From IMG/VR virus record IMGVR_UViG_3300032038_000051, positions 1 to 12,739 of that record: a stretch of 12,739 bases of DNA, one strand, 5' to 3'. The DNA comes from a virus (lineage: Duplodnaviria > Heunggongvirae > Uroviricota > Caudoviricetes). Made by a program: the position numbers and the translations under genes. Below, piece by piece: positions 1 through 12,739 of the stretch (positions within the stretch are counted from its first letter, which is position 1; each line of letters starts with the position of its first letter). Below the pieces are notes generated by a model, which was not told the DNA's origin, did not search any database, and saw nothing but the letters and a program-made list of their open reading frames with translations.

Positions 1-1
1 C

Positions 2-262
2 CCGCTCTACATAGGCTTCCACGGCGGGCTCATGTACGGCACCAACGTCGGCGGCTCCACCACCGCGGGCGCCTGCGACGGGCACTACACGAACAAGCTC
101 GCGACCACCGGGGACAGGGAATGGCTTTCCTCGGGCGTCCTGTGGGGCTCCCGCAACGCCGGCCCTGCCTACGTCTACGGCGACTACGGGCTGGGCTCGG
201 GGAACTGGAGCATCTGGTCGCGGCTCTCTGGGGCTGGTCGGGGATTCGGGGGTGAATCGTAG
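2..262 (+). CDS. DGR target protein, C-terminal part (5'-truncated by window); probable CLec-fold receptor-binding/tail protein
   Basis: Frame 2 is open from the window edge (PLYIGFHGGLMYGTNVGGSTTAGACDGHY...REWLSSGVLWGSRNAGPAYVYGDYGLGSGNWSIWSRLSG...ES*). The last ~45 codons hold the VR. Tail-protein function is inferred from its position upstream of the lysis genes. Confidence 0.85.
   Translation, partial: PLYIGFHGGLMYGTNVGGSTTAGACDGHYTNKLATTGDREWLSSGVLWGSRNAGPAYVYGDYGLGSGNWSIWSRLSGAGRGFGGES
121..231 (+). repeat. DGR variable repeat (VR)
   Basis: Ungapped 111-nt match to 354-464 (offset 233). 14 mismatches (126,127,137,138,143,146,147,176,182,185,197,210,225,226), every one opposite an A in TR. 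Confidence 0.97.
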
Positions 263-274
263 CGAAGCGGAGAG

Positions 275-292
275 AGGGGGCGTAAGCCCCCT
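275..292 (+). other. DGR target-recognition hairpin/cruciform downstream of VR
   Basis: AGGGGGC-GTAA-GCCCCCT: perfect 7-bp GC-rich stem with 4-nt loop, 12 nt after the target stop codon, where DGR cruciforms usually lie. Confidence 0.8.
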
Positions 293-353
293 TGGTCCTC
301 CAAGGAACATACAACCGACGAAACTATCACTTTGGGGATTCGTGACGAGACCG

Positions 354-464
354 ATGGCAATCCTCGGGCAACCTGAGGAACTCCCGCAACGCCGGCCCTG
401 CCTACGTCAACGGCAACAACGGGCTGGGCACGGGGAACTGGAACATCTGGTCGCGGCAATCTGG
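354..464 (+). ncRNA. DGR template repeat (TR), part of the DGR RNA
   Basis: AAC-rich copy of the VR with 25 adenines. In the target frame the A-containing codons are 8 AAC, 2 CAA, AGG, TAC, ACG and ATC. Lies between target gene and RT. Confidence 0.97.
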
Positions 465-623
465 TTTGGCAATCTCAAGAGCACGACCGTCACGACTACC
501 TCGCGCGCGCCAGAGCGCGACGGGGCATGCCCGCTTAACCAAGCGAAATGGCCTCAAGACCACCGGGCTAGTAAGCGCATGCGGAAAACTCGGAAGGCAA
601 ACCAGAGATTGGGTCCATGGTCA

Positions 624-1673
624 ATGAAAACCTACCTAAGGAACTACGAGGTGTCCCGCACGGACGTCTGGGCGGCGCTTGCCGCGTGGAGGTCCGGCGA
701 GTCGGGGCACAAGAACGGCCACAGGGTGGCCGAGGAGTACGGCACCGACGCCGCGCTCGTCGAGGAGATATACGAGGAGATGCGTGGCCGCAGGCTGACG
801 TTCAGGCCCATACGCCGCTACAGGCGCATGGAGCCGACCAACGGCAAGGTCCGCACCATAGGCGTCGAGTCGGTCAAGCAGCAGGTCTGCGACTACCTCG
901 TGACGACGCTGCTCGCCGACCTCTACGACGCGAGGCTCGGCTTCTACCAGGTGGCGTCCGTCAGGGACAAGGGGCAGCGCCTCTGTCGCGGGGCGCTCAG
1001 GAGGTGGGTGCGCGAGGGAGGCTACCACGTCAAGCTCGACGTGCGCAAGTGCTACCCGTCCACCCGCAAGGACGTCGCGATGGCCGTGTACACCAAGTAC
1101 GTGGGGAGCGAGGACGTCCTCTACGTCATATCCGCCATCCTCGGGACCTACGGTCGCGGGCTGGAGATAGGGAGCCTCTTCTCGCTGAGGACGATGCAGC
1201 TCGTCCTCTCCTTCGGCTACCACCACGTCGAGTCGCTCCACAAGGAGCGCCGCGGCAGGATGGTCCGCCTCGTGGCCCACCAGATATGGCACATGGACGA
1301 CGTGCTGCTCACCGGCCCGAGCAAGCGCGACCTGAAGATGGCCGTGCGCAGCCTCGAGCGCTACCTGTCGTCGGAGTTCGGGCTGACGCTCAAGCCGTGG
1401 AAGGTCGCCCGCACCTGCGACGCCGAGCCGCTGGACCTCGGCGGCTGGGTCGTGAGGGAGCGCCGGGCGACCATCAGGGGCGCGACGTTCCTGCGCGGCA
1501 TGAGGTCGTTCCGCGACTTCGAGAGGCGACCCACCGTCGGCAAGGCGAGGAGGTGCACGGCCTACTGGGGATGGTTCGCCAACGGCGACAACGGCGGGGT
1601 GATGCACCGCAACCACATGGGCAGCACGTTCGCGCACGCGAGGTCGCTCGTGTCGAGGGCCGAGAGGCCGTAG
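624..1673 (+). CDS. DGR reverse transcriptase (~349 aa)
   Basis: RT motifs GKVRTIGV, YHVKLDVRKCYPS, GLEIGSLFS, WHMDDVLL, GLTLK, LDLGGW. ATG 624 chosen because the extension to 252 runs over the TR. Adjacent to a TR/VR pair. Confidence 0.93.
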   Translation: MKTYLRNYEVSRTDVWAALAAWRSGESGHKNGHRVAEEYGTDAALVEEIYEEMRGRRLTFRPIRRYRRMEPTNGKVRTIGVESVKQQVCDYLVTTLLADLYDARLGFYQVASVRDKGQRLCRGALRRWVREGGYHVKLDVRKCYPSTRKDVAMAVYTKYVGSEDVLYVISAILGTYGRGLEIGSLFSLRTMQLVLSFGYHHVESLHKERRGRMVRLVAHQIWHMDDVLLTGPSKRDLKMAVRSLERYLSSEFGLTLKPWKVARTCDAEPLDLGGWVVRERRATIRGATFLRGMRSFRDFERRPTVGKARRCTAYWGWFANGDNGGVMHRNHMGSTFAHARSLVSRAERP

Positions 1674-1698
1674 CGAGGACAAAGAACAACAGCACCAC

Positions 1699-1737
1699 CG
1701 AAGGCCCGTCCCGTACGCCGCGCGGGGCGGGCCTTCG
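1699..1737 (+). terminator. Strong hairpin after RT (possible terminator lacking a U-tract)
   Basis: CGAAGGCCCGTCCCG (1699-1713) pairs with CGGGGCGGGCCTTCG (1723-1737): 15 bp with one G-U. Confidence 0.5.
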
Positions 1738-1791
1738 CATATCGAGAGCGCGGCGGATTGCGAGGCATCAGATGGTCAAGGGGGTCACCTA

Positions 1792-2205
1792 GTGAACGAG
1801 ATGGCTTTCCAGCTGCTGGCCGCCGGGGCGTTCGAGCTGGTCGCGATACCCGTGATCGTCTCCATCATCAAGCGCTTCATCGGCAAGCGCATGGACGAGA
1901 TGGACGAGAAGCGGGACGAGGCGCGCAAGGAGCGCAAGGAGCAGCACGAGGAGGACAGGGCGTGGCGCGAAGGCATGACGGCGGGCATGAGGTCGCTGCT
2001 TCGCGCCGAGATCATCGGCGAGCACCGCCGCGCGATGGAGCGCGGGGGAGTCTCGCTCGAGTCGAAGGAGTACCTGACGCGGGTGCACGCCGCCTACAAG
2101 GGCGTCGGGGGCAACGACATGGGGGACGCGCTGTACGAGGAGGTAATGAGCCTCCCGACGCGCTCGAGAGAGAGGAACACCAATGCTGAGCAGGGAGTGG
2201 CTTAG
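1792..2205 (+). CDS. Phage membrane protein of the lysis module (holin-associated hypothetical)
   Basis: N-terminal hydrophobic helix, charged coiled segment, C-terminal LLRAEI...AYKGVGGND...LYEEVMSLP pattern that I recall upstream of holins in Gram-positive phages. Confidence 0.7.
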   Translation: MNEMAFQLLAAGAFELVAIPVIVSIIKRFIGKRMDEMDEKRDEARKERKEQHEEDRAWREGMTAGMRSLLRAEIIGEHRRAMERGGVSLESKEYLTRVHAAYKGVGGNDMGDALYEEVMSLPTRSRERNTNAEQGVA

Positions 2206-2386
2206 GGCGGCGGGGATACGCGCCGTGAAGACGATGGCGCAGACCGCGGTCGCGCTCATCGGGACGAACGCCATCGGCATCACCGAGGTCAACTGGATAG
2301 GCGTGGCCTCGGGCGCCGCGCTGGCGGGGGTGGTGTCGATGCTCACGAGCGTCGCCGGCCTGCCGGAGGTGGGCGATGGCGAATAG
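2183..2386 (+). CDS. Holin (phage r1t holin-like)
   Basis: 67 aa, WLRAAGIRAVKTMAQTAVALIG...VNWIGVASGAALAGVVSMLTSVAGLPEV, two hydrophobic segments, overlaps the endolysin start. Confidence 0.9.
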   Translation: MLSREWLRAAGIRAVKTMAQTAVALIGTNAIGITEVNWIGVASGAALAGVVSMLTSVAGLPEVGDGE

Positions 2387-3977
2387 GAGGCTCGTCCTGG
2401 ACGTCTCGCACTGCGACAGGGGCATCGACCTCGCCAGGTGGCGCGACAGGCACGGCGTGTGGGGCGTCATCGTCAAGTGCGGCGGGTACGAGGTCCTGGA
2501 GGAGGGCGGCTACCCCGTCCAGTACAGGCACAGGGACTACGACACGCACTACGCCAACGCCAAGGCGGCGGGCCTGCACGTCGGCGTCTACTACTACTCG
2601 ATTGCCACGGACGTCGCCGCCGCGAGGCGCAACGCCGACCACTGCGCGTCGCTCCTCAAGGGCCGCGACCTCGACCTGCCCGTCTACCTCGACGTCGAGG
2701 ACAAGGGGCAGCTGAGGATCGGGAGGCGCGCCCTCACCGACGTCGTCGCGGCGTTCTGCGACCGCATGCGCGAGCTCGGCCACCTCGCGGGCGTCTACAC
2801 CTACCGCTCGATGTTCCACGGCTACATGCGCCCCACCGAGCTGCTGCGCTACCCGCTGTGGCTCGCGGAGTACAGCGACCGCTGCCGCACCGAGTACCCG
2901 CACGGCATGTGGCAGTTCGGCTGCATGAGGCTGTCAGACGGCGACGTGAGCTGGGACGACGTGGCGGGGTACGTCGACGCCAACTGGCTCTACACGGACT
3001 ACACGACCCAGAACAAGGGGGCTAACATGACCAAGAGGGAGGCGGTCCTCGCCAAGGTGAGGTCGCAGCTGGGGGTCAGGTACTACTCGATGCACGAGGG
3101 GCCGAGGGGGTCCGCCGTCGAGGGCTGGGGGTGCGCCATGCTGTGCGCGTGGTGCTACGACCAGGTCCTCGGCACGGCCTACTACGGCTCCTGCTACAAC
3201 TTCGCGGGCGACGCGCTCGGCCAGTCCGTCAACCACGGCGGGGGCCAGTGGCGCTTCGTGGACGACCCGCTGCCCGGCGACCTCGTGATCTACATAGCCG
3301 AGGGCTACAACGGCCTCGACTACGACGACTACGGGCACATCGCCATGTACGTCGGCGACGGCAAGGTCATCGGCGCGTGGGGCGTCGGCAAGCCGGGGCA
3401 GGCGGGGTACAAGCCGCTGCTGGGCGTCGCCGAGACCACGATAGCCTACCAGTCGCTCGGCAACGGCTGGCGCTTCCTGCGCAACACCCGCATCGACGAG
3501 CCCGACCCAGAGCCGGAGCCTGAGCCCAAGCCCGAGCCCAAGCCAAAGCAGAAGGTCCCCAAGGCCGCGAAGGGCGGGGTGTACCGCCTCTACGACGGCT
3601 CCACGGGCGACCACTTCTTCACCACCGGCAGGGGGGAGGCCCAGGCGGCGGCGGACGCGACGTACACATACGAGCAGGTCGCGTGGACGGCGCCCGACAA
3701 GGGCGACGCCGTGTACCGGCTCTACGATCCCAAGACGGGCGAGCACATCTACACGAGGAACGCCGTCGAGCGCGGCTCCCTGAAGGCGCACAAGTGGCGC
3801 GACGAGGGCGTGGCGTTCAGGTCCGGCGGCAAGGTGCCCGTGTACCGGCTGTTCCACGAGAGGGGCGACGGCCCGAGCGTGGGAAAGCACATCTTCACCA
3901 AGGACAAGGCGGAGCGCTCGGCGCTCCTCAAGTCCGGCTGGAAGGACGAGGGAGTGGCCTTCTACGCCACCAAGTAG
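2376..3977 (+). CDS. Modular endolysin: GH25 muramidase + NlpC/P60-like peptidase + Pro-Glu/Lys linker + DUF5648-like repeats
   Basis: LDVSH...GVIVKC...GVYYYS...PVYLDVED...LWLAEY...MWQF...VDAN (GH25); GWGCAMLC...GHIAMYVGDGKVIGA (Cys/His peptidase); EPDPEPEPEPKPEPKP linker; three VYRL(Y/F)...H(F/I)(F/Y)T repeats with W.DEGVAF. Confidence 0.92.
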   Translation: MANRRLVLDVSHCDRGIDLARWRDRHGVWGVIVKCGGYEVLEEGGYPVQYRHRDYDTHYANAKAAGLHVGVYYYSIATDVAAARRNADHCASLLKGRDLDLPVYLDVEDKGQLRIGRRALTDVVAAFCDRMRELGHLAGVYTYRSMFHGYMRPTELLRYPLWLAEYSDRCRTEYPHGMWQFGCMRLSDGDVSWDDVAGYVDANWLYTDYTTQNKGANMTKREAVLAKVRSQLGVRYYSMHEGPRGSAVEGWGCAMLCAWCYDQVLGTAYYGSCYNFAGDALGQSVNHGGGQWRFVDDPLPGDLVIYIAEGYNGLDYDDYGHIAMYVGDGKVIGAWGVGKPGQAGYKPLLGVAETTIAYQSLGNGWRFLRNTRIDEPDPEPEPEPKPEPKPKQKVPKAAKGGVYRLYDGSTGDHFFTTGRGEAQAAADATYTYEQVAWTAPDKGDAVYRLYDPKTGEHIYTRNAVERGSLKAHKWRDEGVAFRSGGKVPVYRLFHERGDGPSVGKHIFTKDKAERSALLKSGWKDEGVAFYATK

Positions 3978-3984
3978 CCACGAC

Positions 3985-4021
3985 GGCCCCATCCGCATCG
4001 CGCGGGTGGGGCCCTTTTTTC
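3985..4021 (+). terminator. Rho-independent terminator of the late/lysis transcript
   Basis: GGCCCCATCCGC-ATCGC-GCGGGTGGGGCC (12 bp, one G-U) followed by CTTTTTTT. Confidence 0.85.
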
Positions 4022-4036
4022 ATATGCCGGCCATCC

Positions 4037-5563
4037 TCACGCCGCGCGGGAGAACACGAGGTAGACGCACCCGTTCAAAAAGGCGAACCCGGACTCGCCG
4101 GGTTCGCACAACTTGAGTTTGGTAGGCCAAACCTTTTCTTGTGCGAACTCTCGGGACAGCTCGAACCGCGCCGGGTCCTCGAAACCCCCATAGTTGAGCA
4201 CGACCACGACCTCGTCGTCGCCGACCTGCACCTGCCACACGAAGGCGTCGAGCAGCTCCCTGTCGGACATCGACACGCCGGCGGAGAGGAAGTCCGCGAA
4301 CCCCTCGACGTCGAGCGCCGCCTCCTCGGATATGCGCGCCACCTCGTTCTCGGCGGTCGCCTTGGCGAGCCTGAGCTCGGCCAGCCGCCCCGACACCTCG
4401 GCGTAGGGCATGCCGTCCTCGACCGCCCGCATGACGTTCTCGATCCTCCTCTCCGCCTCCGACAGCCTCGACCTGGCCGCGGACAGCATCGCGTCGACGC
4501 GCTCGGTGGTCATCGACTCGGCGACGTCGCGCGCGATCTCCAGGGTGGTGGCCCTGCTCGACAGCATCCGCCTCAGCTCCGCGACCACCGCCGGCTCTAT
4601 CCAGTCCGCCCTGACCGGCTTGCACCCGCACCTCTTGGAGCACCGGTAGTACGAGTACTTCACGCCCCCGTGCCCCCTGCCGGAGACGCCCACGAGGTTG
4701 CTCCCGCACCCGAGGCACACGCCCTTGCCAGCGAAGGCGTAGTCGCCCCAGTCCTCCGTCTCCCTGCGCTTCCTCGCCGGCCTCCTCGAGCCCATCTCGA
4801 ACTCCTCCCTCGTGAGTATGGCGGGCATCCCGCCCTCGACCCTCGTGTCGCCGAAGCTGTAGACGCCGACGTACTTCTCGTTCCTCAGCATGCCGGCGAC
4901 CATCGAGTGGCTGCACGGCCTGTGGTGCGACGTCTCGACGCCGCGCCTCGCGAGGTCGGCGGCTATCGAGTTCGCCGACTCGCCCGCGGCCCTCCTGGCG
5001 AAGACCTCCCTCACGACCTCGGCCTCCTCCGGGTCGACCTCGTACGTGCCGTCCTCGGCGAAGCGGTAGCCGTACACCCGCACGCCGTTGTGCATGCACT
5101 TGAGCGCGTTGCCCCGCATCCCGCGCCTGACCCTCTGCGCTATGTGGGCGCTCTCGACCGCCGCGACGCCCTCGTAGACCTTCTCGAGCAGGATCGCCTC
5201 CGGGCCGTCCGGCATGGACTCCGTGGCCGACACGACCCTGCACCCGGCGTCGCGCAGCCGCTTCTTGTAGACCGGCGCGTCGTATGGGTCGCGGCTGAAC
5301 CGGTCCATCATGTAGACCACCGCGACCTCGGCCTCCCCGGCGTTGTCGACCATCCGCTGGAACTGCGGCCTGTCGTCGGACCTGCCCGACCTCGCGAAGT
5401 CGGAGTACGTCCCGACGACCCGGTAGCCGTTGGCCGTGCACCACTCCGTGCAGGCCCTGAGCTGGTCCTCTATCGACGCCTCGCGCTGCTTCGAGCAGCT
5501 GAACCTGGCGTATATCACGGCGGTCCCCGGCGGCGGCGACCCCCTCCTGGCCCTCCTTCTCAC
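4037..5563 (-). CDS. Large serine recombinase (phage integrase)
   Basis: VIYARFS (catalytic Ser), SGRSDDRPQF, DRFSR, recombinase domain YGYR, Zn ribbon CLGCG...YYRCSKRCG, coiled coil. GTG start with AGGGGG upstream. Confidence 0.95.
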   Translation of the reverse strand: MRRRARRGSPPPGTAVIYARFSCSKQREASIEDQLRACTEWCTANGYRVVGTYSDFARSGRSDDRPQFQRMVDNAGEAEVAVVYMMDRFSRDPYDAPVYKKRLRDAGCRVVSATESMPDGPEAILLEKVYEGVAAVESAHIAQRVRRGMRGNALKCMHNGVRVYGYRFAEDGTYEVDPEEAEVVREVFARRAAGESANSIAADLARRGVETSHHRPCSHSMVAGMLRNEKYVGVYSFGDTRVEGGMPAILTREEFEMGSRRPARKRRETEDWGDYAFAGKGVCLGCGSNLVGVSGRGHGGVKYSYYRCSKRCGCKPVRADWIEPAVVAELRRMLSSRATTLEIARDVAESMTTERVDAMLSAARSRLSEAERRIENVMRAVEDGMPYAEVSGRLAELRLAKATAENEVARISEEAALDVEGFADFLSAGVSMSDRELLDAFVWQVQVGDDEVVVVLNYGGFEDPARFELSREFAQEKVWPTKLKLCEPGESGFAFLNGCVYLVFSRAA

Positions 5564-5607
5564 GGCGTCCCCCTAACGGTTAGACAATTGATGTGACATG
5601 GTACGAA

Positions 5608-5877
5608 CTATGATGTCAGCTGGTTGACGTCCTTATCGTCCAGGAGCCTCACGGCGATGCCATAGGCGGACGAGACGAACATCCCCTCGCCGTCCCGCGA
5701 CGACCCGAGCCGTTCGTCGGGCATCGACGCGAGCCTCCTCGTCCTCTCGCCGAAGTCCGGGACCTCGAGGTACGTCGCGCTCCTCCTGACGCAGACGAAG
5801 CACGCCCAGCCGCCCCTGATCCTGCCGGGCTTGGCCTCCGGGGACCTCTTCCTCCCGCATATCGCGCATGTGTCCAT
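5608..5877 (-). CDS. Small hypothetical protein with CxxC...CxxC (possible Zn finger), 89 aa
   Basis: GAGAGGA RBS before ATG, high-GC3 codons, CAIC and CFVC motifs, co-oriented with the integrase. Confidence 0.65.
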   Translation of the reverse strand: MDTCAICGRKRSPEAKPGRIRGGWACFVCVRRSATYLEVPDFGERTRRLASMPDERLGSSRDGEGMFVSSAYGIAVRLLDDKDVNQLTS

Positions 5878-6092
5878 GTGACGTCCTCTCCACGATGCCC
5901 GCCAGAGCTACTGAGAGCGATTCTGACGGGACTTCTCGCCACCTCCGGTGCAGTTGGCCGTCCTGCGTTGGCGATGGCCGCAGAACGCCCGAGGGCCGCT
6001 TTCGGCGAAATCCGACGAAAGGGTTTTTTCTTGTCTTGGTCTTCTTTCCTTTGTTTTCTTCGCTTTGTCTTCTTCTCTTTTTATTCTTAGTT

Positions 6093-6222
6093 GCGGGTTT
6101 TCCGCTGCGGAAAACCCGCTGCGGAAAACCCGCTGCGGAAAACCCGCTGCGGAAAACCCGCTGCGGAAAACCCGCTGCGGAAAACCCGCTGCGGAAAACC
6201 CGCTGCGGAAAACCCGCTGCGG
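6093..6222. repeat. 14-bp tandem repeat (CCCGCTGCGGAAAA) x ~8.7, preceded by one inverted unit
   Basis: Units start at 6101 (C>T in first base), 6115, 6129, 6143, 6157, 6171, 6185, 6199, partial 6213-6222. 6093-6105 GCGGGTTTTCCGC is the reverse complement of 6107-6119. Confidence 0.95.
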
Positions 6223-6272
6223 TGACGGCGGTGTGGGGTGGGTATCGGAGCGGCGACGGCTGGGTATAAGCC

Positions 6273-6644
6273 CTATCCCGCCACCGACTCCGCGAGCGCC
6301 GTGACCATCACCAGGACGACGTCGCGGCGGACGGGGTCGAGCGATCGGTAGGACCGGAGCAGGGAGACCTCGTCGGAGGTCATCGCGCCAAGCTCGCACT
6401 CTTCGTCCGCGTCAAGCTCGGAGAAGGCGGTCCCGAGTATCGTGTCGGTAGACACACCGAGAATCCTGCTGAGGCGTACGACCTGCTGCGCCGATATCGA
6501 CCTGGCGCCCTGCTCCCACTTTTGATATGCAGAAAGTGAGATTCCGAGAGCTCCTGCAACGTCCGTCTGTGTCAGCTGGGTAAATGTCTCCCGAGCTCTT
6601 TTCAATGCGGAATCCATCATCACTCCGTTCGTCTCGTGCGTCAT
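6273..6644 (-). CDS. XRE-family HTH repressor (cI-like); start may be 6644, 6620 or 6617
   Basis: LKRARE...LTQTDVAGALGISLSAYQKWEQG.R.I...VVRLSRILGVSTDTILG, C-terminal DEVSLLRSYRSLD. Divergent from the Cro-like gene, co-oriented with the integrase. Confidence 0.9.
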   Translation of the reverse strand: MTHETNGVMMDSALKRARETFTQLTQTDVAGALGISLSAYQKWEQGARSISAQQVVRLSRILGVSTDTILGTAFSELDADEECELGAMTSDEVSLLRSYRSLDPVRRDVVLVMVTALAESVAG

Positions 6645-6653
6645 TGTGTGTAT

Positions 6654-6722
6654 ATAGTAGCACAATCTGTGCGAGATTTTTTGAAAATAGTTCTTGCAAA
6701 GTAGCACAGGGGGTGCTACATT
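6654..6722. promoter_or_regulatory. Divergent promoters and two operators of the lysis/lysogeny switch
   Basis: Rightward TTGCAA (6694-6699)-17 nt-TACATT (6717-6722) with extended TG. Leftward extended -10 TGcTACTAT (minus strand, TACTAT at 6659-6654). Operators GTAGCAC-N5-GTGCTAC (6701-6719, perfect) and GTAGCAC-N5-GTGCgag (6657-6675). Confidence 0.8.
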
Positions 6723-6764
6723 ATTCCCAGAGCGGTCACCCACAGGGTGCGAGTTGGAGGAAGA

Positions 6765-7001
6765 ATGAGTGCAGTGAATAACAACATCATAGCCGAGAGA
6801 AAGCGCCTTGGAATGTCGCAGGAGGAGCTCGGGAGGATCTTGGGGAGGGACCGTTCCGCCATCAGCAGGATGGAGCGTAACCCGATGTCGCTCACCGGCG
6901 ACATGATAGCGAGGCTATCAGACATCTTCTGCTGCTCGTCCGACTATCTGCTCGGTCTTACCGACGAGAGGGTCCCCAGACACTCGGTTGTGGCTACGTA
7001 A
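6765..7001 (+). CDS. Cro-like XRE-family HTH protein (78 aa)
   Basis: GGAGG RBS at 6756-6760; IIAERKRLGMSQEELGRILGRDRSAISRMERN...LSDIFCCSSDYLLGLTD. Confidence 0.9.
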   Translation: MSAVNNNIIAERKRLGMSQEELGRILGRDRSAISRMERNPMSLTGDMIARLSDIFCCSSDYLLGLTDERVPRHSVVAT

Positions 7002-7084
7002 TGACGCCAAACACCATACCGGGCCTCGCGATGCTCGCCCTAATAGCGATCATGGTCGCGAGCGACAGACACTTTAAGTTTTAG
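7001..7084 (+). CDS. 27-aa hydrophobic peptide MTPNTIPGLAMLALIAIMVASDRHFKF (not in the ORF track)
   Basis: TAATG overlap with the cro stop (translational coupling), one TM-like stretch. CRISPR spacer 8 encodes a near-synonymous homologous segment, supporting coding constraint. Confidence 0.65.
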   Translation: MTPNTIPGLAMLALIAIMVASDRHFKF

Positions 7085-7160
7085 ATTCACGCACGTTAAA
7101 CCAATCTTCAAAAGACCCCCGACGCGGGGTCCGGCGAAGCCTTGCAAAAAGGAGCCGAGC

Positions 7161-7286
7161 ATGGAAAAGGGAAAGCCTACAGCGGAGATTCCGCCCAAGG
7201 AAGTGCGCGTAAGAAAGATGGCCTCCGTCCTCCTGCCGCTCTATCGCGAGTGGCTCCGGCAGGGCAAGCCCAAGCGGGAGGGATAG
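7161..7286 (+). CDS. 41-aa hypothetical early protein MEKGKPTAEIPPKEVRVRKMASVLLPLYREWLRQGKPKREG (not in the ORF track)
   Basis: AAGGAG RBS 6 nt upstream of ATG 7161; in the early lytic direction. Confidence 0.55.
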   Translation: MEKGKPTAEIPPKEVRVRKMASVLLPLYREWLRQGKPKREG

Positions 7287-7887
7287 CGCGACCTGTGGGC
7301 GTGCCCCCTTGGCGGGACTGGCGGCTTTGGAACAGGACCAAGCCGATAGTGCGGACAGCCAGCCTCGCCAAAGGAGCGCACCTGCGTTCCACGCACCTTG
7401 AAAACCGAGAGCGGCGCTACGTTGTAGCCACACAAGGAACCGGCGTGATCCTGCGTCGGGTGGCGTGGTCGCTATACAAAAGCAACGGAGGGTCGCGGGC
7501 TGCCGAAAAGGCTGGCCTGCGGACCAGAGACGTAACTCCTCGGCACGGGGAGGACATGGAAGACGTGCTGCGCAGTCACATCCTGCGTCGAGTGACAGAT
7601 GTGCGGCCGGCTATGCGGGGATTCGAGACCGTAGGCCGGCGAGGTGGGCCTGGGACAAGGCGCACGGCGCTTCGAGCGCAACAAAGAAATCAAGCCCACC
7701 TGGCTCGCGAGCGAGGTGGCTGAGAGAGCCTCGCCCATCGAGTGCGCGGGGACGTGAACGGTTCCGAGGCCGCTCCCGAGGTGACGCTCGGGGGCGGCTT
7801 GCAGGCGGCAATCCTGACCGGACGCCGCCACATATGATACGCGAGCGGGAGGCCGCGAGACCTCCCGCCGACGTTCGAGGAGGACTA

Positions 7888-8133
7888 ATGGCCGAAGATA
7901 AGAACGCAGACGGACGCGAGAGCACTGACCGCGAGGCCCGCATAAGGGCGCTTGACTTGACGATCCTGGTCGTCTCCGAGACGGTGCGAGACGCCGCGGA
8001 GGCCGCGTCGAAGTTCGGATTCGCGCCGGACGCAATGGCAGCGCTCACGCAGTCGACCGACGCGCTGTGCAGGCTCGCGCACGAGGCGACCGCGATCGAG
8101 GTCGAGCTCGCTGACGTGCCCGAGAAAGCATAG
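7888..8133 (+). CDS. Hypothetical protein (81 aa, helical)
   Basis: GGAGGA RBS before ATG 7888, phage-like codon usage; real part of the 7465..8133 ORF. Confidence 0.7.
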   Translation: MAEDKNADGRESTDREARIRALDLTILVVSETVRDAAEAASKFGFAPDAMAALTQSTDALCRLAHEATAIEVELADVPEKA

Positions 8134-8145
8134 GCCACCATTAAC

Positions 8146-8217
8146 GCCCCGTTGGCCCAATGGACAAGGCGCTCGCCTCCTAAGCGAGAGCTCCGGGTTC
8201 GACTCCCGGACGGGGCA
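8146..8217 (+). tRNA. tRNA-Arg(CCU), CCA not fully encoded (ACCT)
   Basis: Acceptor GCCCCGT/ACGGGGC, D loop with TGG, anticodon stem CTCGC/GCGAG with loop CT-CCT-AA (anticodon 8179-8181), T arm CCGGG-TTCGACT-CCCGG. Confidence 0.93.
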
Positions 8218-8278
8218 CCTATGTATACACGGAGCGTCATGCGAGGCATCAGCGCGTCGCGCAAGCCGCTCCGTCATC

Positions 8279-8381
8279 TACCGTGTACCGCACGGGAAGT
8301 CACGCCTGTGGAGTGCTCTCAAGACCCTTCGGGGCAATGCACGACGAAGCAGGAACTCACGCCAGTCGTGGGTGGAGGTCC
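8279..8381 (+). ncRNA. Stand-alone TnpB omegaRNA (reRNA)-like scaffold 1
   Basis: TACCGTG-TACCG-CACGGGAA, ACGCCTGTGGAG (8302-8313), AAGAC, cTTCGg hairpin, GAAGCAGGAA (8346-8355), terminal stem CTCACG/CGTGGG, end GGAGGTCC. Same blocks and order as 10234-10364 and as IS605-group tnpB 3' ends (translated tail ACG...KQE). No tnpB ORF directly upstream. Confidence 0.8.
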
Positions 8382-8403
8382 GCGTATTCGCAGGTAGGGA
8401 AGT

Positions 8404-9036
8404 CTTTCACCCGCGCAAGCGTGGGAAGGTCCCATGTGCAAGCCTTTTTCCGTCACCTCTAGGCCTTTCACCCGCGCAAGCGTGGGAAGGTCCTACGTCG
8501 AAATCATCCACCGTGGCGCGCTGGACTTTCGCCCGCACGAGCGTGGGAAGGTCCGCTATAGCGAGGACGAGCTAAGCCCGGTCGAGCTTTCACCCGCGCA
8601 AGCGTGGGAAGGTCCGTGAGCCGAAAGCACGTCAACGACCTTCTAAGCTTTCACCCGCGCAAGCGTGGGAAGGTCTTAGCAATGGGCAACAACGCGAAAG
8701 AAAAGGCCCTTTCACCCGCGCAAGCGTGGGAAGGTCCACGTTAACGCGGAAGAAGGCCCGAGCCGCGTTCTTTCACCCGCGCAAGCGTGGGAAGGTCCGC
8801 TATAGCGAGGACGAGCTAAGCCCGGTCGAGCTTTCGCCCGCGCGAGCGTGGGAAGGTCCACGATCCACGGACTCGCGATGCTCGCCTTGGTCTTTCGCCC
8901 GCGTGAGTGAGGGAAGGTCCGCATGCCGTCGGCCAGGTCGATGAGGTCGAGCTTTCACCAGCGTGGGCGTGGGAAGGTCCGGGACAGCGTGAAGCGCGAT
9001 CCAAAGGCTTTCGCCCGCACGAGCGTGGGAAGGTCC
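8404..9036 (+). CRISPR. CRISPR array 1: 11 repeats (29 nt, CTTTCACCCGCGCAAGCGTGGGAAGGTCC), 10 spacers, type I-E-like repeat
   Basis: Repeats start at 8404, 8465, 8526, 8587, 8648, 8709, 8770, 8831, 8892, 8952, 9008. Spacers are 32 nt x8, then 31 and 27. 61-nt period. Degeneracy increases rightwards, so the leader is on the left. Confidence 0.97.
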
Positions 9037-9083
9037 TGGGCGTAGAGCGTGTCTACGACGACGACAACTAAAGAAGCGATAAT

Positions 9084-10214
9084 ATGATTAGTAGAGCATA
9101 TAAGTTCAGAATTTACCCGAACAAGACGCAGGCCGAACTCATCGAGGAGACGTTCAGGGCGTGCCGATACGTGTGGAACATCGCACTCGAATGCAAGAAG
9201 GTCGAATGGGATGACAGAGGAAAGAACGTTTCGGCGTACGAGCTGATGAAGCTCCTCACCGGCGTGAAGTCCGTATGCACATGGCTGTACGACGTGCCTA
9301 ACTCGGCCATGCAGCAGTCCATACGAGACCTCGACGTCGCGTTCAAGAACTTCTTCAGGCGAGTCAAGAACGGCGAGAAGCCCGGCTATCCGAAGTTCAA
9401 GAAGGCGGGATGCAGCTTCCAGAGCTACAGGACTCCTGCCGCCGGGAACGCGGTACGCGTCATCGACGACCGTCACGTCAAATTGCCGAAGCTCGGCAAG
9501 GTCAAGTGCCGCATCACGCAGACGCCGCAAGGACATCTGCTGAGCGCCACCGTCAGCAGGACTCCATCTGGAAAGTACTTCTGTTCGATAACGTGCGAGA
9601 ACGTGCCGGAGCCGTACATGGAAGACGGCACCCTCGACGTCATGGGCGTCCGTCTCGGCGTACGCGACCTCATCACGTGCTCGGACGGCGTGAGGGTCGA
9701 GAACCCGAGGGCGCTGTCGAAGTCCGAGAGGAAGCTCAGGCGCGAGCAGCGCAGGCTGAGCCGCAAAAAGAGGGGCTCGGCGAATTACAGGAAGCAGAAG
9801 CAGAAGGTCGCGCTGGTCCACGAGAGGGTCGCCAACCAGAGGAGAGACAACATCCACAAGGCGACCACGAGGATCGTCCGCGACAGCAAGGCGATCGCCG
9901 TGTCGTCCAACGACGTGGCTGGGATGATGCGCTCGAAGAAGTTCTCCAAGGCAGTCGCGGACGCGAGCATGTCGGAGGTCAAGCGGCAGCTGGCGTACAA
10001 GGCGCAGTGGTACGGGCGCGACCTCGTCGAGGTTGACGCGAGCACGGCGTTCGGCAGCACGTGCGGGCGATGCGGCGCGCAAGCGGAGCTCAAGGTCGGC
10101 ACGACTCGCTGGACGTGCCCGAAGTGCGGCGCCCACCACGACTACGCGCTGAACGCGGCAAGGAACATAGCGGCCATCGGCATGGCCGAGATCAGAAGGG
10201 GCGGGCGACCGTAA
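9084..10214 (+). CDS. tnpB: TnpB-family protein, predicted nuclease-dead (TldR-like)
   Basis: AYKFRIYPN HTH start, GYPKFK, LPKLG, ZnF CGRC/CPKC, NAARNI. RuvC-I GVRLG (D>R190), RuvC-II AVSSND (E>S274), RuvC-III HDYALN (D>A355). Confidence 0.92.
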   Translation: MISRAYKFRIYPNKTQAELIEETFRACRYVWNIALECKKVEWDDRGKNVSAYELMKLLTGVKSVCTWLYDVPNSAMQQSIRDLDVAFKNFFRRVKNGEKPGYPKFKKAGCSFQSYRTPAAGNAVRVIDDRHVKLPKLGKVKCRITQTPQGHLLSATVSRTPSGKYFCSITCENVPEPYMEDGTLDVMGVRLGVRDLITCSDGVRVENPRALSKSERKLRREQRRLSRKKRGSANYRKQKQKVALVHERVANQRRDNIHKATTRIVRDSKAIAVSSNDVAGMMRSKKFSKAVADASMSEVKRQLAYKAQWYGRDLVEVDASTAFGSTCGRCGAQAELKVGTTRWTCPKCGAHHDYALNAARNIAAIGMAEIRRGGRP

Positions 10215-10233
10215 GGCCGTCCGACGGCAGCGG

Positions 10234-10364
10234 TACCGCGTGTCACGCGGGAACCGGGAGAAATCCGAACGCCTGTGGAGACTGAGTAAGACCGGGCATC
10301 CCCGGCAATGGTCGCAGAAGCAGGAACCCGCATTCGTGGTGGCGAAAGCAAATGGGATTCGTCC
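10234..10364 (+). ncRNA. omegaRNA-like scaffold 2 downstream of tnpB
   Basis: TACCGCG-TGTCA-CGCGGGAA, ACGCCTGTGGAG (10269-10280), TAAGAC, hairpin CCGGG/CCCGG, GAAGCAGGAA (10317-10326), terminal stem CCCGCATT.../AATGGG, end ATTCGTCC. Usual position 3' of tnpB; out-of-frame NACGD and SQKQE tail remnants. Confidence 0.85.
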
Positions 10365-10395
10365 CGAGTCGACGCAAACGCGCAGGCAGCCTAGT

Positions 10396-10703
10396 GTGTC
10401 ACCCCCACGCATGTGGGATGGCCCCTCCGTGACGAATGCGGATCGCTTGTCCGCATGTGTCACCCCCACGCATGTGGGATGGCCCGCGCTAACGGCGGAG
10501 AGCTTGGAGAGATGTCGCCCGTACGCACGCGGGATGACCCGAGCAGATGAGGATTAACCGCGCGTCGCCCATACGTGTGTGGGATGACCCCAAGATCTGG
10601 AGGATTATGAGTCCTCTGTGCTGCGTCTCTCGTACGAGTGTTGGATGACCCGTCGTGAGTGACGAGGAGGAGAGGCGTCGCCTGCACGCATGTGAGATGA
10701 CCC
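10396..10703 (+). CRISPR. CRISPR-like array 2: 6 degenerate 29-nt repeats (GTGTCACCCCCACGCATGTGGGATGGCCC), 5 spacers
   Basis: Repeats at 10396 and 10457 are identical (61-nt period); degenerate copies at 10512, 10562, 10623 and 10675 all keep GTC at positions 3-5 and the GATGRCCC end. Spacers 32, 26, 21, 32, 23 nt. Confidence 0.85.
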
Positions 10704-10750
10704 CCCACGTCGCACGCCGCGCGCATGCGGCGTGCCCTAAGGAGTACGAA

Positions 10751-11530
10751 ATGTCAAACGAGACCAACCTCTCGACGGTCAACGGAGCGCTCGCCAACCT
10801 CGACGGGTTCCTCGCGTCCATCGACGACGCGAAGAGCGCCGACGACGCGCTGTGGCAGGCGAAGCTGATGGACGAGTTCCTGAGGAAGGCCGACGAGTGC
10901 GGCGAGTACGCGGCCGCCTTCTGCCTTCGCGAGGCCCAGATACTCGTGAGGGCCGCCTCCCTTCCCGACCACCTCGAGGTCAGGAGACGTAAGGGGATGA
11001 TAGCCTGGCTGCGGTCCAAGACGATCGAGCAGGTGCAGGAGATCCTCGACGAGTGCGCGACCGGCGTGCGCATAGGCGTGATAAAGGCGCGCGAGACCAG
11101 GGCGGCGAACGCGCAGGACTGCAGGGACCGCCAGATCGACGAGTTCAAGCGGATAAGCAGCAAGCTCATCGACGAGGTCGGCGCGACCGGACGAACCACG
11201 ATATCCGTCGAGCGCTTCTACGCCGAGTGGCGACTCGCCGAGACGCCTGACAGGCAGACGATGGCCGCGTTCAGGGAGAAGACCAAGAACGACGCGCTCG
11301 GGTTGGGCGCAGTGGGCCTCGGAGACGGCTCCGGCACGTACGCGATACCCGTGAAGTGCGACCGCGAGGACACGAGGCTCTACGTCGAGAACAGGCTGAG
11401 GTCGATGCACCATGACATCGTCTCGCTCACCAAGCATTGCAGGGCGTCGAACTTCGCCGTGGCCCACTGCGCGACCGACGCGCTCAGGGCGGACCTCGAC
11501 GAGCTGGAGGCGCTCAATGACCGAGATTGA
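10751..11530 (+). CDS. Hypothetical phage protein (259 aa)
   Basis: AAGGAG RBS before ATG 10751 (MSNETNLSTV...), strong GC3 bias; no family recognised. Confidence 0.75.
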   Translation: MSNETNLSTVNGALANLDGFLASIDDAKSADDALWQAKLMDEFLRKADECGEYAAAFCLREAQILVRAASLPDHLEVRRRKGMIAWLRSKTIEQVQEILDECATGVRIGVIKARETRAANAQDCRDRQIDEFKRISSKLIDEVGATGRTTISVERFYAEWRLAETPDRQTMAAFREKTKNDALGLGAVGLGDGSGTYAIPVKCDREDTRLYVENRLRSMHHDIVSLTKHCRASNFAVAHCATDALRADLDELEALNDRD

Positions 11531-11957
11531 CGTGAGGGACGTCTACGACGTCGCGCATGGCAGGCAGGTGGACATGGAGTCGCGTCGCGGGGACCCGTTC
11601 AGGTGCGTCGACACGACCGACATGGGGTTCGCCAAGGACGTGTCGCGCAAGCTCATGGACGTCGAGCACTCGCTCGAGAACCTCGTGCAGACGGTACGGT
11701 CAAGCGGCGACTGCGTGAGGTTCGCGTTCGGCGCCGGCAGGCGCACCAGCCACGGGGTCTCGTACGACCTGTGGTCGGTCGCGGCCCTCGTGGCGGCGAT
11801 ATACGACGGCATCGCGAACGGCGAGGACGACAGGTCCGTCTACCTCAAGTCTGACGCTCGCTGCAAGGGCGTCGCCGACGACGCGGTCGTCGCGTCGATG
11901 TCCGGGGCGTACGACGTCGACGCATATGCGCGCGAGTTCGCGCGCAACCTATCGTAG
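11517..11957 (+). CDS. Hypothetical phage protein (146 aa)
   Basis: GGAGG at 11506-11510, ATG 11517 (MTEIDVRDVY...), overlaps the upstream gene end; no family recognised. Confidence 0.7.
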   Translation: MTEIDVRDVYDVAHGRQVDMESRRGDPFRCVDTTDMGFAKDVSRKLMDVEHSLENLVQTVRSSGDCVRFAFGAGRRTSHGVSYDLWSVAALVAAIYDGIANGEDDRSVYLKSDARCKGVADDAVVASMSGAYDVDAYAREFARNLS

Positions 11958-11965
11958 CAACAACA

Positions 11966-12182
11966 CAGAGCCGTCGGCAGGGCCCACCCGACTTCGGGCC
12001 GGTCAGCTTCGCCGGACCCGTCGAAAGGGAGCACCATCTGCGTTCCTTTCCTGCGCAGGCAACCTGACGCGGGCGGGCCGTGCCGGCGGCTCTGGCACGA
12101 CCGAGCGTCACGTGGGGGCGCGCCGCGACCAGAAGGTTTCCCCACACCACAGAGCAACTGGCGCGCCCGCACGGGGCGCTCG
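11966..12182 (+). ncRNA. Putative structured RNA / leader of unknown class
   Basis: 20-bp closing stem 11966-11985/12075-12094 (1 mismatch, 1 G-U) enclosing several short hairpins; second long interrupted stem 12102-12124/12160-12182. Confidence 0.45.
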
Positions 12183-12196
12183 GAGGGGAGCGAGGA

Positions 12197-12739
12197 ATGA
12201 TAACGATGACGGTGGACCCGCGGTCCTACTACGGCGACGTCCTGTACGAGAACCCGACCTTCTCCTTCCGCGAGGGCGTGACGGTCCTCGTTGGATGCAA
12301 CGGCAGCGGCAAGACGACGTTGATGAGGAGGCTCGAGGCCGCGCTCGCCGGCGTCGAGGACGTGTCGACCCGCACGTTCGACCTACGCGACGTCGAGGGG
12401 TTCCTGAGCCGCGCGCTCGTTCAGCCCGACGGCGGGTCCGACATGGCCGCGATCCTCGGCTCGAGCGAGGGCGAGCGCGTCGTCGTCCTGCTCGGCAAGG
12501 CGCTCGGATGGGCGTGGGCGCAATGCGAGCGCGGCGTCCCGAGGGTCCTGCTGATGCTCGACTCGCTCGACTCGGGGGCCGACGTCCCCACGATCGACCG
12601 CGTCGTCGACGCACTCGAGACCACCGTATGCGAGGTCGCCGACGCTTACGGTACGAGGCTGCACGTGCTGGTCTCGGCCAACACCTACGAGCTCGCGAGG
12701 GGACGGCGCTGCGTCGACGTCTCGACCGGGATGGTCAGG
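12197..12739 (+). CDS. ABC-type/AAA ATPase (3'-truncated by window; not in the ORF track)
   Basis: MITMTVDPRSYYG...VTVLVGCNGSGKTTL (Walker A), SSEGE (signature-like), LLMLDSLDSGAD (Walker B/D-loop-like); open to the window end. Confidence 0.85.
   Translation, partial: MITMTVDPRSYYGDVLYENPTFSFREGVTVLVGCNGSGKTTLMRRLEAALAGVEDVSTRTFDLRDVEGFLSRALVQPDGGSDMAAILGSSEGERVVVLLGKALGWAWAQCERGVPRVLLMLDSLDSGADVPTIDRVVDALETTVCEVADAYGTRLHVLVSANTYELARGRRCVDVSTGMVR

Follow-up and report, generated by a model that had tools for sequence, protein, structure and literature searches.

How might a phage-encoded TnpB that has lost its nuclease residues be supplied with guides from CRISPR arrays, and what would match a given guide-RNA scaffold to a given array? 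Both questions are raised by a 12,739-nt stretch of a Caudoviricetes genome (positions 1 to 12,739 of IMG/VR record IMGVR_UViG_3300032038_000051, hereafter the window), in which a TnpB gene is flanked by two omegaRNA scaffolds, each joined to a CRISPR array. An earlier note, made from sequence alone, had proposed that each scaffold carries a 7-nt anti-repeat arm that co-varies with the repeat of its own array, that a GACC:GGTC pairing could form the expected pseudoknot, and that a repeat could replace the scaffold's own 3' strand, in trans or by refolding, and so place a spacer in the guide position. The observation behind that proposal was confirmed in every letter and coordinate. The interpretation was only partly supported, since the pairing that co-varies is at a different site.

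We first examined the protein. The tnpB gene (9084-10214; all features described here are on the plus strand) encodes 376 aa with the expected OrfB_IS605 RuvC-like core, N-terminal HTH and C-terminal zinc-ribbon (TNB) domains (Pfam PF01385, 1e-24; PF12323, 2e-15; PF07282, 3e-15). Its closest solved structure is ISDra2 TnpB (E 2e-72 over the full length). The zinc-finger cysteines are kept, but all three residues of the RuvC triad are replaced (D190R, E274S, D355A), where 36 of 38 close homologues have D, E and D and 162 of the 172 TnpB matches typed in the loci read D-E-D. RNA-guided cleavage of the kind TranC proteins carry out is therefore not expected. Three relatives with the same scaffold-array layout (L004, L005 and L006 in our numbering of related loci) share the dead triad. 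The dead clade has 100/100 support and is nested among active array-bearing phage TnpBs, with the sister loci L008, L009 and L275 retaining D-E-D. No member of the dead clade was found in the genome collection; the best match was from Olsenella at 52%. No transposon context was detected, as no Y1 TnpA was found in the 78.6-kb phage record, in a search that covered neither serine recombinases nor element ends.

It is possible that the locus is simply a decaying relic, with complementarities left over from common descent and no present function. The loss of the triad, the irregular spacers and diverged repeats of the second array, and the absence of identified targets all fit this view. However, four dead homologues at 57-64% identity keep a full-length reading frame, the zinc finger, most invariant TnpB positions and the same R/S/A replacements, the first array is regular, and loop and handle changes compensate each other (see below). 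We consider this explanation very unlikely.

Both scaffolds are real omegaRNA scaffolds. Our model R1 found exactly two in the window, at 87 and 74 bits, while ordinary relatives have one, directly after tnpB. Scaffold 1 (8266-8381) is an extra copy with no tnpB upstream and with a complete stem 4 and tail; we aligned it with 17 relatives. Scaffold 2 (10221-10352) is in the normal place, starting 7 nt after the tnpB stop codon. Against Rfam RAGATH-18, the core of scaffold 1 (8305-8355) scored 30.4 bits (E 0.02), below the gathering score of 44.9, and scaffold 2 was not reported, so the resemblance covers the core only. A promoter/terminator scan gave nothing usable for the scaffolds.

Within scaffold 1, the stem-1 hairpin (8281-8295; CCGTG/CACGG) has the loop TACCG at 8286-8290, and two of its pairs are supported by 10-12 double changes. 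The terminal hairpin, stem 4 (8356-8372), consists of the 5' arm CTCACG(C), which is the proposed anti-repeat, the loop CCAGT and the 3' arm CGTGGG. It is followed by the tail TGGAGGTCC (8373-8381). This end is homologous to the canonical end of array-less relatives, (C/T)CCCGCGAC-TTTA-GTCGTGGG-AGGTTCA followed by a variable flank, which in turn matches the stem 4, UUUA tetraloop and pseudoknot strand of ISDra2 omegaRNA (Nakagawa 2023, PMC10097598); the tail is the counterpart of AGGTTCA. In scaffold 2, the stem-1 hairpin is at 10236-10250 with the loop TGTCA at 10241-10245, and the arm CCCGCAT at 10327-10333 belongs to a weak stem 4 followed by TGGC.

Array 1 (8404-9036) comprises 11 type I-E-like repeats of 29 nt with the handle AAGGTCC and mostly 32-nt spacers; spacer 3 equals spacer 7. 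Array 2 (10396-10703) comprises six I-E-like repeats, two identical and four decayed, with irregular spacers and the handle ATGGCCC or ATGACCC. The arm CTCACGC (8356-8362) lies directly after GAAGCAGGAA, with CCCGCAT in the same position of scaffold 2. GCGTGGG occupies repeat positions 16-22 in 10 of 11 array-1 repeats (repeat 9 has GTGAGGG), and ATGTGGG is present in array-2 repeats 1-2. Each arm pairs 7/7 with the repeat of its own array, with one G-U. When the arms were swapped, arm 1 with array 2 gave 6 contiguous pairs and arm 2 with array 1 gave 6 pairs, 5 of them contiguous, so the cognate advantage is one base pair each.

A 7/7 match in any register arose in 0.6% of shuffled repeats and 3-4% of shuffled arms, and thus exceeds chance. 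It is not independent evidence, though, because the arm is one half of the scaffold's own hairpin, whose other half (CGTGGG) equals the 3' arm of the repeat. Six or seven other 7-mers in each scaffold also pair 7/7 with the repeat. Covariation across homologous loci had been set beforehand as a test of the arm, and it came out against array specificity: across seven I-E-class modules, cognate arms pair 5.7/7 against 5.3/7 for non-cognate arms (permutation p 0.16). Two modules pair only 5/7 with their own repeat and one pairs 3/7 in the fixed register used (about 5 bp if the register is freed), and in the class with 36-nt repeats the arms pair only 3-4 bp by eye. The repeats are palindromic and carry their own 5' arm, which competes with arm pairing. 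This repeat hairpin is supported by compensatory G-C/A-T changes and wins the cofold for module 1, although cofolding of module 2 prefers arm 2 with repeat 2. In scaffold 4 of the related contig L004, the scaffold's own 3' arm is lost, yet its 5' arm still pairs 7/7 with several repeats. The arm also has a precedent, as Nakagawa 2023 equates stem 4 with repeat:anti-repeat 2 of the Cas12f sgRNA. On balance, we consider it unlikely that the arm is the array-specific element, though its pairing with the repeat may add to the interaction.

The proposed pseudoknot partner is also not supported. GACC (8323-8326) sits in a local helix (8323-8335; a G-C pair, a bulged A, then CCC/GGG with a TTCG loop), the pairs of which carry 4-8 both-side changes across 18 scaffolds in an RNAalifold analysis. 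We therefore rejected the GACC:GGTC pairing. The resemblance between the scaffold-1 end, CGTGGG-TGGA-GGTCC (8367-8381), and the repeat end, GCGTGGG-AA-GGTCC, does hold. The 3' part of the repeat is a look-alike of the crRNA-like 3' part of the omegaRNA (the stem-4 3' strand plus the pseudoknot strand), and could therefore place a spacer in the guide position. This is the split that Nakagawa 2023 drew for ISDra2 omegaRNA and that TranC systems use, as summarized in reviews (PMC13565253, PMC13639567).

What does co-vary is the apical loop of stem 1 with the 3' handle of the repeat, which is the known ISDra2 omegaRNA pseudoknot (-5U to -3C with -103A to -105G; PK2 of the ISFba1 reRNA is a second precedent). 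In module 1, ACC (8287-8289) is complementary to GGT of the repeat handle and also of the scaffold's own tail (8377-8379). In module 2, the loop GTCA pairs with TGGC/TGAC. Predicted loop-handle pairing is 4/4 in 9 of 10 array-linked modules and 3/4 in window module 1, while non-cognate pairs average 3.25. Only 39 of 200,000 shuffles reached the observed total. Pair types at one position are C-G, G-C and U-A, and at another A-U and G-C; both states occur within one contig (L004) and across both repeat classes. The more distant array-linked loci L058, L073 and L130, which were left out of this test, showed no loop complement within the scaffold tail and none in their repeats by eye.

This signal should be read with some caution. 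The pseudoknot is only 3-4 bp and handles are similar across modules, so the evidence rests on two columns and about five independent lineages. In about half the modules, including both in the window, the scaffold's own tail carries a complement to the loop, and loop co-variation there could reflect the scaffold's own fold, with repeats similar only by descent. Several of those tail sites are not clearly at the guide-adjacent position. However, in scaffold 1 of L006, scaffold 1 of L008 and both scaffolds 1 and 2 of L009, the scaffold's own tail lacks the exact 4-nt complement (and, by eye, G-U-tolerant variants), while the repeats carry it. Among array-less relatives, 14 of 34 have an exact 4-mer complement of the loop in their tail, against 9.7% for non-cognate combinations.

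We next asked where the arrays came from. The repeats match type I-E repeats of Coriobacteriales (GTGCTCCCCGC...GCGGGGATGATCC) with the same 61-nt period; long arrays of this repeat type were seen in 13 of the 151 sampled Coriobacteriales genomes, and 16 had any match to the pattern. The repeat of array 2 of L009 is about 25/28 identical to a host repeat by eye. Two pattern searches of genomes for the leader motif returned mostly coding-sequence noise, so leaders were read directly at array ends. The motif GCAGGT-N5-AAGT, abutting the first repeat at the same spacing, ends the leaders of I-E arrays in 4 of 5 Coriobacteriales genomes read and occurs in all I-E-class phage modules. In the window, it lies in the 22 nt after scaffold 1 (8382-8403), a remnant of a type I-E leader end, and, as GCGCAGGCAGCCTAGT, at 10380-10395. 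We considered that the repeats arose by duplication of the omegaRNA tail, but the match of repeat, period and leader end to host arrays makes capture of an I-E array the better reading.

The 22 nt after scaffold 1 occupy its guide position, but need not be a free guide given the leader motif. One possibility is that each scaffold is a self-contained omegaRNA whose fixed guide is the I-E leader end, so that the dead TnpB would sit on leader-repeat junctions of host arrays and block their transcription or spacer uptake (an anti-CRISPR role), with the phage arrays as passengers. The intact stem 4 and tail of scaffold 1 and the conservation of the motif in hosts are consistent with this. However, the first 8 nt of that guide (the TAM-proximal seed, although no TAM is known) are not conserved between modules or host leaders, and only 14 of 22 nt match the best host leader read, by eye. 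Other modules have decayed tails or different spacing (69, 60 and 70 nt), and the 36-nt modules lack the motif. We regard this reading as very unlikely.

It is also possible, though we think unlikely, that these are orphan phage-borne I-E arrays feeding the host's Cascade, that the scaffolds adjoin them only because a TnpB element once landed in a CRISPR leader, and that the dead TnpB does not use the spacers. The I-E character of repeats, spacers and leader end favors this, and scaffold 1 is complete and abuts leader sequence, as expected after an insertion. Neither Cas1 nor Cas6e was matched in the record, which is about 70% complete; the Cas6e profile also failed to detect its E. coli control, so its sensitivity is doubtful. 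Against this explanation, the scaffold-array junction recurs in 12 or more modules on 6 contigs, some far from any tnpB and some with 36-nt repeats and no I-E leader motif. Four modules keep exactly 48 nt from core to first repeat, and repeat handles depart from the host consensus ATGATCC in step with each scaffold's loop. An IMG/VR pattern scan for scaffold plus leader motif found one further true module, L275, among 25 hits.

Taken together, we favor, with moderate confidence, a TranC-like split guide system feeding a TldR-like dead TnpB from I-E-derived arrays. In this view, each of two composite loci is an ISDra2-type scaffold (stem-1 hairpin, RAGATH-18-like core and stem-4 hairpin) joined through the last 14-22 nt of a type I-E leader to an I-E-derived array. 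Because an I-E repeat (hairpin plus 7-nt handle) resembles the 3' module of the omegaRNA, the scaffold would act as a tracrRNA-like part and each repeat-spacer unit would supply the crRNA-like part. The tie between scaffold and array would be the pseudoknot (ACC:GGU for module 1, GUCA:UGGC/UGAC for module 2). The complex should bind DNA rather than cut it (TldR-like or CRISPRi-like), with rival phages or host genes as likely targets, and new spacers could come from the host's I-E Cas1-Cas2. The anatomy, the I-E identity of repeats and leader end, the dead triad and its conservation, and the loop-handle co-variation are shown by our analysis; transcription, processing, loading in trans, DNA binding and spacer uptake are inferred from sequence alone, and the repeats could still serve host Cascade.

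TranC systems (Jin et al., Cell 2025, as described in PMC13565253, PMC13639567 and bioRxiv 10.64898/2026.03.27.714800) likewise involve a TnpB-sized protein, nested among TnpBs and next to a CRISPR array, with an omegaRNA/reRNA-derived scaffold as the tracrRNA-like part and the repeat as the crRNA-like part, roles that are inferred here; the loop-handle co-variation supports scaffold-repeat pairing, but both window scaffolds keep a loop-complementary tail of their own. Some TranC are phage-borne and lack adaptation genes. A TnpB-lineage protein adjacent to an array is present here and in 6 related contigs. However, the triad is destroyed here, and the repeats (29 nt) and leader end are of type I-E rather than the 32-38 nt repeats, mostly of unknown subtype, reported for the four TranC clades described in one preprint. 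There are several scaffold-array modules per phage, some with no tnpB beside them, and the protein is far from LaTranC (E 7e-21, C-terminal part only).

TldRs (Wiegand et al.; bioRxiv 10.1101/2023.11.30.569447; 10.64898/2026.09.22.753285) are TnpB homologues with a ruined RuvC site kept with an adjacent omegaRNA-like guide RNA, often prophage-encoded and not in a transposon. Our locus has both the clade-wide inactivating changes and the adjacent scaffolds. The TldRs in those two papers, searched by keyword, use one fixed guide against a promoter of a linked gene; the 2026 paper never uses the word "array" and the 2023 paper has one unrelated mention of a CRISPR array. Here, the guide position is followed by arrays of up to 11 repeats, and no linked target gene was identified.

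In ISDra2 omegaRNA and the Cas12f sgRNA (PMC10097598), as is predicted here, the loop of stem 1 forms the pseudoknot with the 3 nt next to the guide, with the pseudoknot corresponding to repeat:anti-repeat 1; the UUUA closure of stem 4 is shared by array-less relatives. Here, the 3' module is present many times over as palindromic repeats that carry both strands of the stem, and in several modules the scaffold's own 3' module has decayed. Compared with type I-E arrays of Coriobacteriales and with virus-borne orphan arrays, the 29-nt repeat with a CCC...GGG hairpin and 7-8-nt handle, the 32-nt spacers, the period and the leader-end motif are shared, but I-E cas genes were not detected in the record, an omegaRNA scaffold replaces the rest of the leader, and the handle has drifted to match the scaffold loop. 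Cas12m and Cas12c (cited in PMC13565253) bind DNA from a CRISPR array without cutting it, which is the expected mode of action here, but those are larger Cas12 proteins with their own repeat types, while this is a 376-aa TnpB with a full omegaRNA scaffold.

TranC work showed that splitting the omegaRNA can turn a TnpB into a CRISPR effector, and TldR work showed that dead TnpBs act as single-guide repressors. This locus joins the two and adds a source for the array, a ready-made type I-E array with its leader junction. It offers a concrete, testable route for how type V systems acquired arrays and access to adaptation, and points to a natural compact multi-guide DNA binder. The loop-handle pairing gives a simple rule for which scaffold serves which array. 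For annotation, it shows that CRISPR arrays in phage genomes may belong to a TnpB rather than to the CRISPR type their repeats suggest. More tentatively, since the I-E leader-repeat junction is kept, the host's own Cas1-Cas2 could add spacers and the phage would gain an adaptive, multi-guide, DNA-binding (CRISPRi-like) system, with the scaffold as tracrRNA held to each repeat by the ancestral pseudoknot. If so, this is a living example of a class 2 effector being born by capture of a class 1 array, made possible because the I-E repeat already resembles stem 4 plus the pseudoknot strand.

Finally, we searched for targets of the spacers. No protospacer was found in IMG/VR, where exact scans with spacers 3/7 and 8 gave nothing, or in GenBank phages, which gave only weak chance hits. 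Most hits of spacer 9 in Coriobacteriales genomes are a common GC-rich coding motif in unrelated genes. With no TAM known, we retained as leads only a partial match of spacer 8 to 7012-7039, the phage's own genome giving just a 15-nt exact core for this spacer, and a 30/31 match of spacer 9 to an LCP-family gene of one Coriobacteriales genome.

The first 12,739 nt of the 78.6-kb IMG/VR virus record carry, in order along the + strand, a divergent XRE repressor/Cro-like pair (6273-7001), a tRNA-Arg(CCT) gene (8146-8219), scaffold 1 (8266-8381), a 22-nt junction (8382-8403), array 1 (8404-9036, 11 repeats), a tnpB gene encoding 376 aa (9084-10214; Pfam OrfB_IS605, HTH and TNB), scaffold 2 (10221-10352), a longer junction and array 2 (10396-10703, 6 repeats, four of them decayed). 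A covariance model built from 18 related scaffolds found exactly these two scaffolds in the window, at 87 and 74 bits, whereas ordinary TnpB relatives have a single scaffold right after the gene. The XRE-family genes (156 aa on the minus strand, 84 aa on the plus strand) are arranged like a cI/Cro switch, which suggests a temperate phage, and a GH25/NlpC lysin lies at 2376-3977. A long inverted repeat (ACGGAGCG ... CGCTCCGT) at 8220-8276, between the tRNA-Arg gene and scaffold 1, may be a terminator or a processing element.

An earlier note had proposed that each scaffold carries an anti-repeat arm that co-varies with the repeat of its own array. Every coordinate and pairing count in that observation proved to be right. 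CTCACGC of scaffold 1 pairs 7/7 with GCGTGGG, which is present in 10 of 11 array-1 repeats, and CCCGCAT of scaffold 2 pairs 7/7 with ATGTGGG of array-2 repeats 1-2. The swapped combinations give 6 contiguous pairs, and 6 paired with 5 contiguous, respectively. A 7/7 match arises in 0.6% of shuffled repeats, so it is not chance. However, it is also not independent evidence, because the arm is the 5' strand of the scaffold's own terminal hairpin (8356-8372), and the 3' strand of that hairpin, CGTGGG, is the same as the repeat's 3' arm. The interpretation built on the arm was supported only in part, as described below.

Array-less relatives of this TnpB end their scaffold with GAAGCAGGAA, then a hairpin closed by TTTA, then AGGTTCA, after which conservation stops. 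That is the layout of ISDra2, and the closest solved structure to the window protein is ISDra2 TnpB (E 2e-72). Nakagawa et al. (PMC10097598) describe the ISDra2 omegaRNA as a natural single guide in which a tracrRNA-like part and a crRNA-like part are joined by the UUUA tetraloop of stem 4. Stem 4 is equivalent to Cas12f repeat:anti-repeat 2. The pseudoknot is formed by -5U to -3C, next to the guide, with -103A to -105G, which by their numbering lies between the two strands of stem 1. The proposed anti-repeat is thus the stem-4 5' strand, and the idea of splitting the RNA there has a structural precedent.

To investigate whether the arm co-varies with its array, we collected relatives. Three further proteins, from loci L004 (the same contig as L007), L005 and L006, share the R/S/A replacement of the RuvC triad seen in the window protein, and all have scaffold-array modules on both sides of the gene. 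L004 has four modules and L006 three, some with no tnpB beside them. Three relatives with active TnpBs (L008, L009 and L275) also carry such modules. Across the seven modules with 29-nt repeats, cognate arm-repeat pairs scored 5.7 of 7 and non-cognate pairs 5.3 of 7 (permutation p 0.16). Two modules pair only 5/7 with their own repeat, one pairs 3/7 in the fixed register (about 5 bp by eye if the register is freed), and arm 1 of the window pairs 7/7 with the L006 repeat as well. Each repeat also has its own 5' arm, and that internal hairpin shows compensatory G-C/A-T changes between repeats of one array (L004 array 4 and window array 2). Folding gave similar energies for the repeat hairpin and the arm-repeat duplex, with the hairpin winning for module 1 and the duplex for module 2. 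The arm pairing is therefore possible, but it is not shown to be array-specific.

The pseudoknot partner suggested in the note, GACC (8323-8326), lies in a local helix (G-C, CCC/GGG, TTCG loop) that carries 4-8 both-side changes per pair across 18 scaffolds, and is not free to pair. What does co-vary with the repeat handle is the loop of the 5' hairpin. Giving the loop core first and the handle core second, with S denoting a numbered scaffold, the combinations are ACC with GGU in window module 1; GUCA with UGGC or UGAC in window module 2; GCC with GGC in L004 S1 and S3; GGC with GCC in L004 S2 and S4; GUCA with UGAC in L008 S1 and L009 S1; GGUC with GACC in L009 S2; GGCA with UGCC in the upstream module of L275; and GAAC with GUUC in array-less relatives. 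Cognate pairing is 4/4 in nine of ten modules and 3/4 in window module 1, and only 39 of 200,000 shuffles reached the observed total. Both states occur within one contig and across both repeat classes. Window scaffold 1 and L004 S3 have very similar cores by eye, yet they differ at loop position 2 (A versus G) in step with U versus C in the handle. In about half of the modules, including both window scaffolds, the scaffold's own tail also pairs with the loop, and it is possible that part of the signal belongs to the scaffold's own fold. In four modules the scaffold's own tail lacks the exact complement while the repeats have it. Among array-less relatives, 14 of 34 have the exact 4-mer complement in their tail, against 9.7% for non-cognate combinations.

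TnpB relatives point to Atopobiaceae/Olsenella hosts. Of 151 sampled genomes of that order (Coriobacteriales), 16 had any match to the repeat pattern and 13 hold long arrays with repeat GTGCTCCCCGC...GCGGGGATGATCC or CTGTTCCCCGC...GCGGGGATGATCC and a 61-nt period, which are type I-E. Four of the five leaders that we read end with GCAGGT-N5-AAGT directly before the first repeat. The phage modules have the same 29-nt layout, 32-nt spacers and the same motif at the same spacing (8390-8403 in module 1, 10382-10395 in module 2, and likewise in L004, L006, L009 and L275). The stretch 8382-8403 is thus a leader remnant rather than necessarily a free guide, and each module is a scaffold fused to an I-E leader end and array. 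Six same-strand copies of CGCAGGTA, the core of the leader-end motif, cluster in an AT-rich non-coding stretch at the other end of the phage record (77734-78554), and only two other forward copies exist in the 78.6 kb, one of them in the scaffold-1 junction. No Cas1, Cas6e or Y1 TnpA was found in the record, which is about 70% complete, and the sensitivity of the Cas6e profile is doubtful. The hairpin plus handle of the I-E repeat resembles the canonical stem 4 plus AGGTTCA, which may be what allowed the capture.

A second class of module, with 36-nt repeats of a different family, was found in the related dead-TnpB phages (L004 1779-2260 and 3689-4020; L006 4009-4530). These scaffold-linked arrays resemble arrays next to more distant active TnpBs (L058 and L130), and scaffold cores and array types appear to have been shuffled. 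Within window array 1, spacers 3 (8555-8586) and 7 (8799-8830) are identical and lie in a duplicated repeat-spacer-repeat block (8526-8622 versus 8770-8866, 92% identical).

In the window protein, D190R, E274S and D355A replace the catalytic triad, while the zinc-finger cysteines and most invariant positions remain. The dead clade has 100/100 support and is sister to the active, array-bearing L008 and L275, then L009. Together they are sister to transposon-type Olsenella TnpBs, although the seven-member node has only moderate support (82/85). Array association therefore came first and loss of the nuclease second. LaTranC is only distantly similar.

The arrangement of the locus, the I-E character of its arrays and leader ends, the replaced triad and the loop-handle co-variation were all read from sequence, whereas how the system works is inferred at every functional step. 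Most likely, the scaffold and array would be transcribed and the scaffold would serve as the tracrRNA-like part. A repeat would supply stem 4 (or its 3' strand) and the pseudoknot strand, the spacer would become the guide, and the dead TnpB would bind DNA without cutting it. A TnpB with an array and a split guide is already covered by TranC (PMC13565253, PMC13639567 and bioRxiv 10.64898/2026.03.27.714800), and dead TnpB repressors with a single guide are covered by TldR; a keyword search of two TldR papers found no description of TldR-linked arrays. The present locus combines the two and differs in showing arrays and a leader junction of type I-E.

No protospacers were found in IMG/VR, in exact scans with spacers 3/7 and 8, or in GenBank phages, which gave only weak chance hits, but two leads on targets emerged. 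Spacer 9, with the two repeat bases before it (8921-8951), matches an LCP (LytR-CpsA-Psr) family cell-envelope gene of one Coriobacteriales genome at 30/31 positions, on the antisense strand (L299 1501-1531, from genome G387). Other genomes gave only weaker hits to a common GC-rich coding motif. The second lead is a spacer in L005 (151-182) that is the reverse complement, at 28/29 positions, of the scaffold core of L004 module 1 (135-163). This suggests conflict between related phages, with spacers that seem to be taken from rival copies of the same locus. In addition, spacer 8 (8860-8891) matches the phage's own sequence just after the Cro-like gene (7012-7039) at 23 of 28 positions (15 exact). 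The mismatches are in the 5' (seed) part, and the true target may be the same region of a related phage.

Elsewhere in the window, nine to ten tandem copies of the 14-nt unit CCGCTGCGGAAAAC lie at 6088-6227, just downstream of the 3' end of the minus-strand XRE repressor gene, and may be a binding-site array or an origin. The window also contains a diversity-generating retroelement, with two 111-nt copies at 121-231 and 354-464 and an RVT_1-like reverse-transcriptase ORF beside them (around 252-1792). The two copies differ at 14 positions, and all 14 are A in the second copy (template repeat) and another base in the first (variable repeat).
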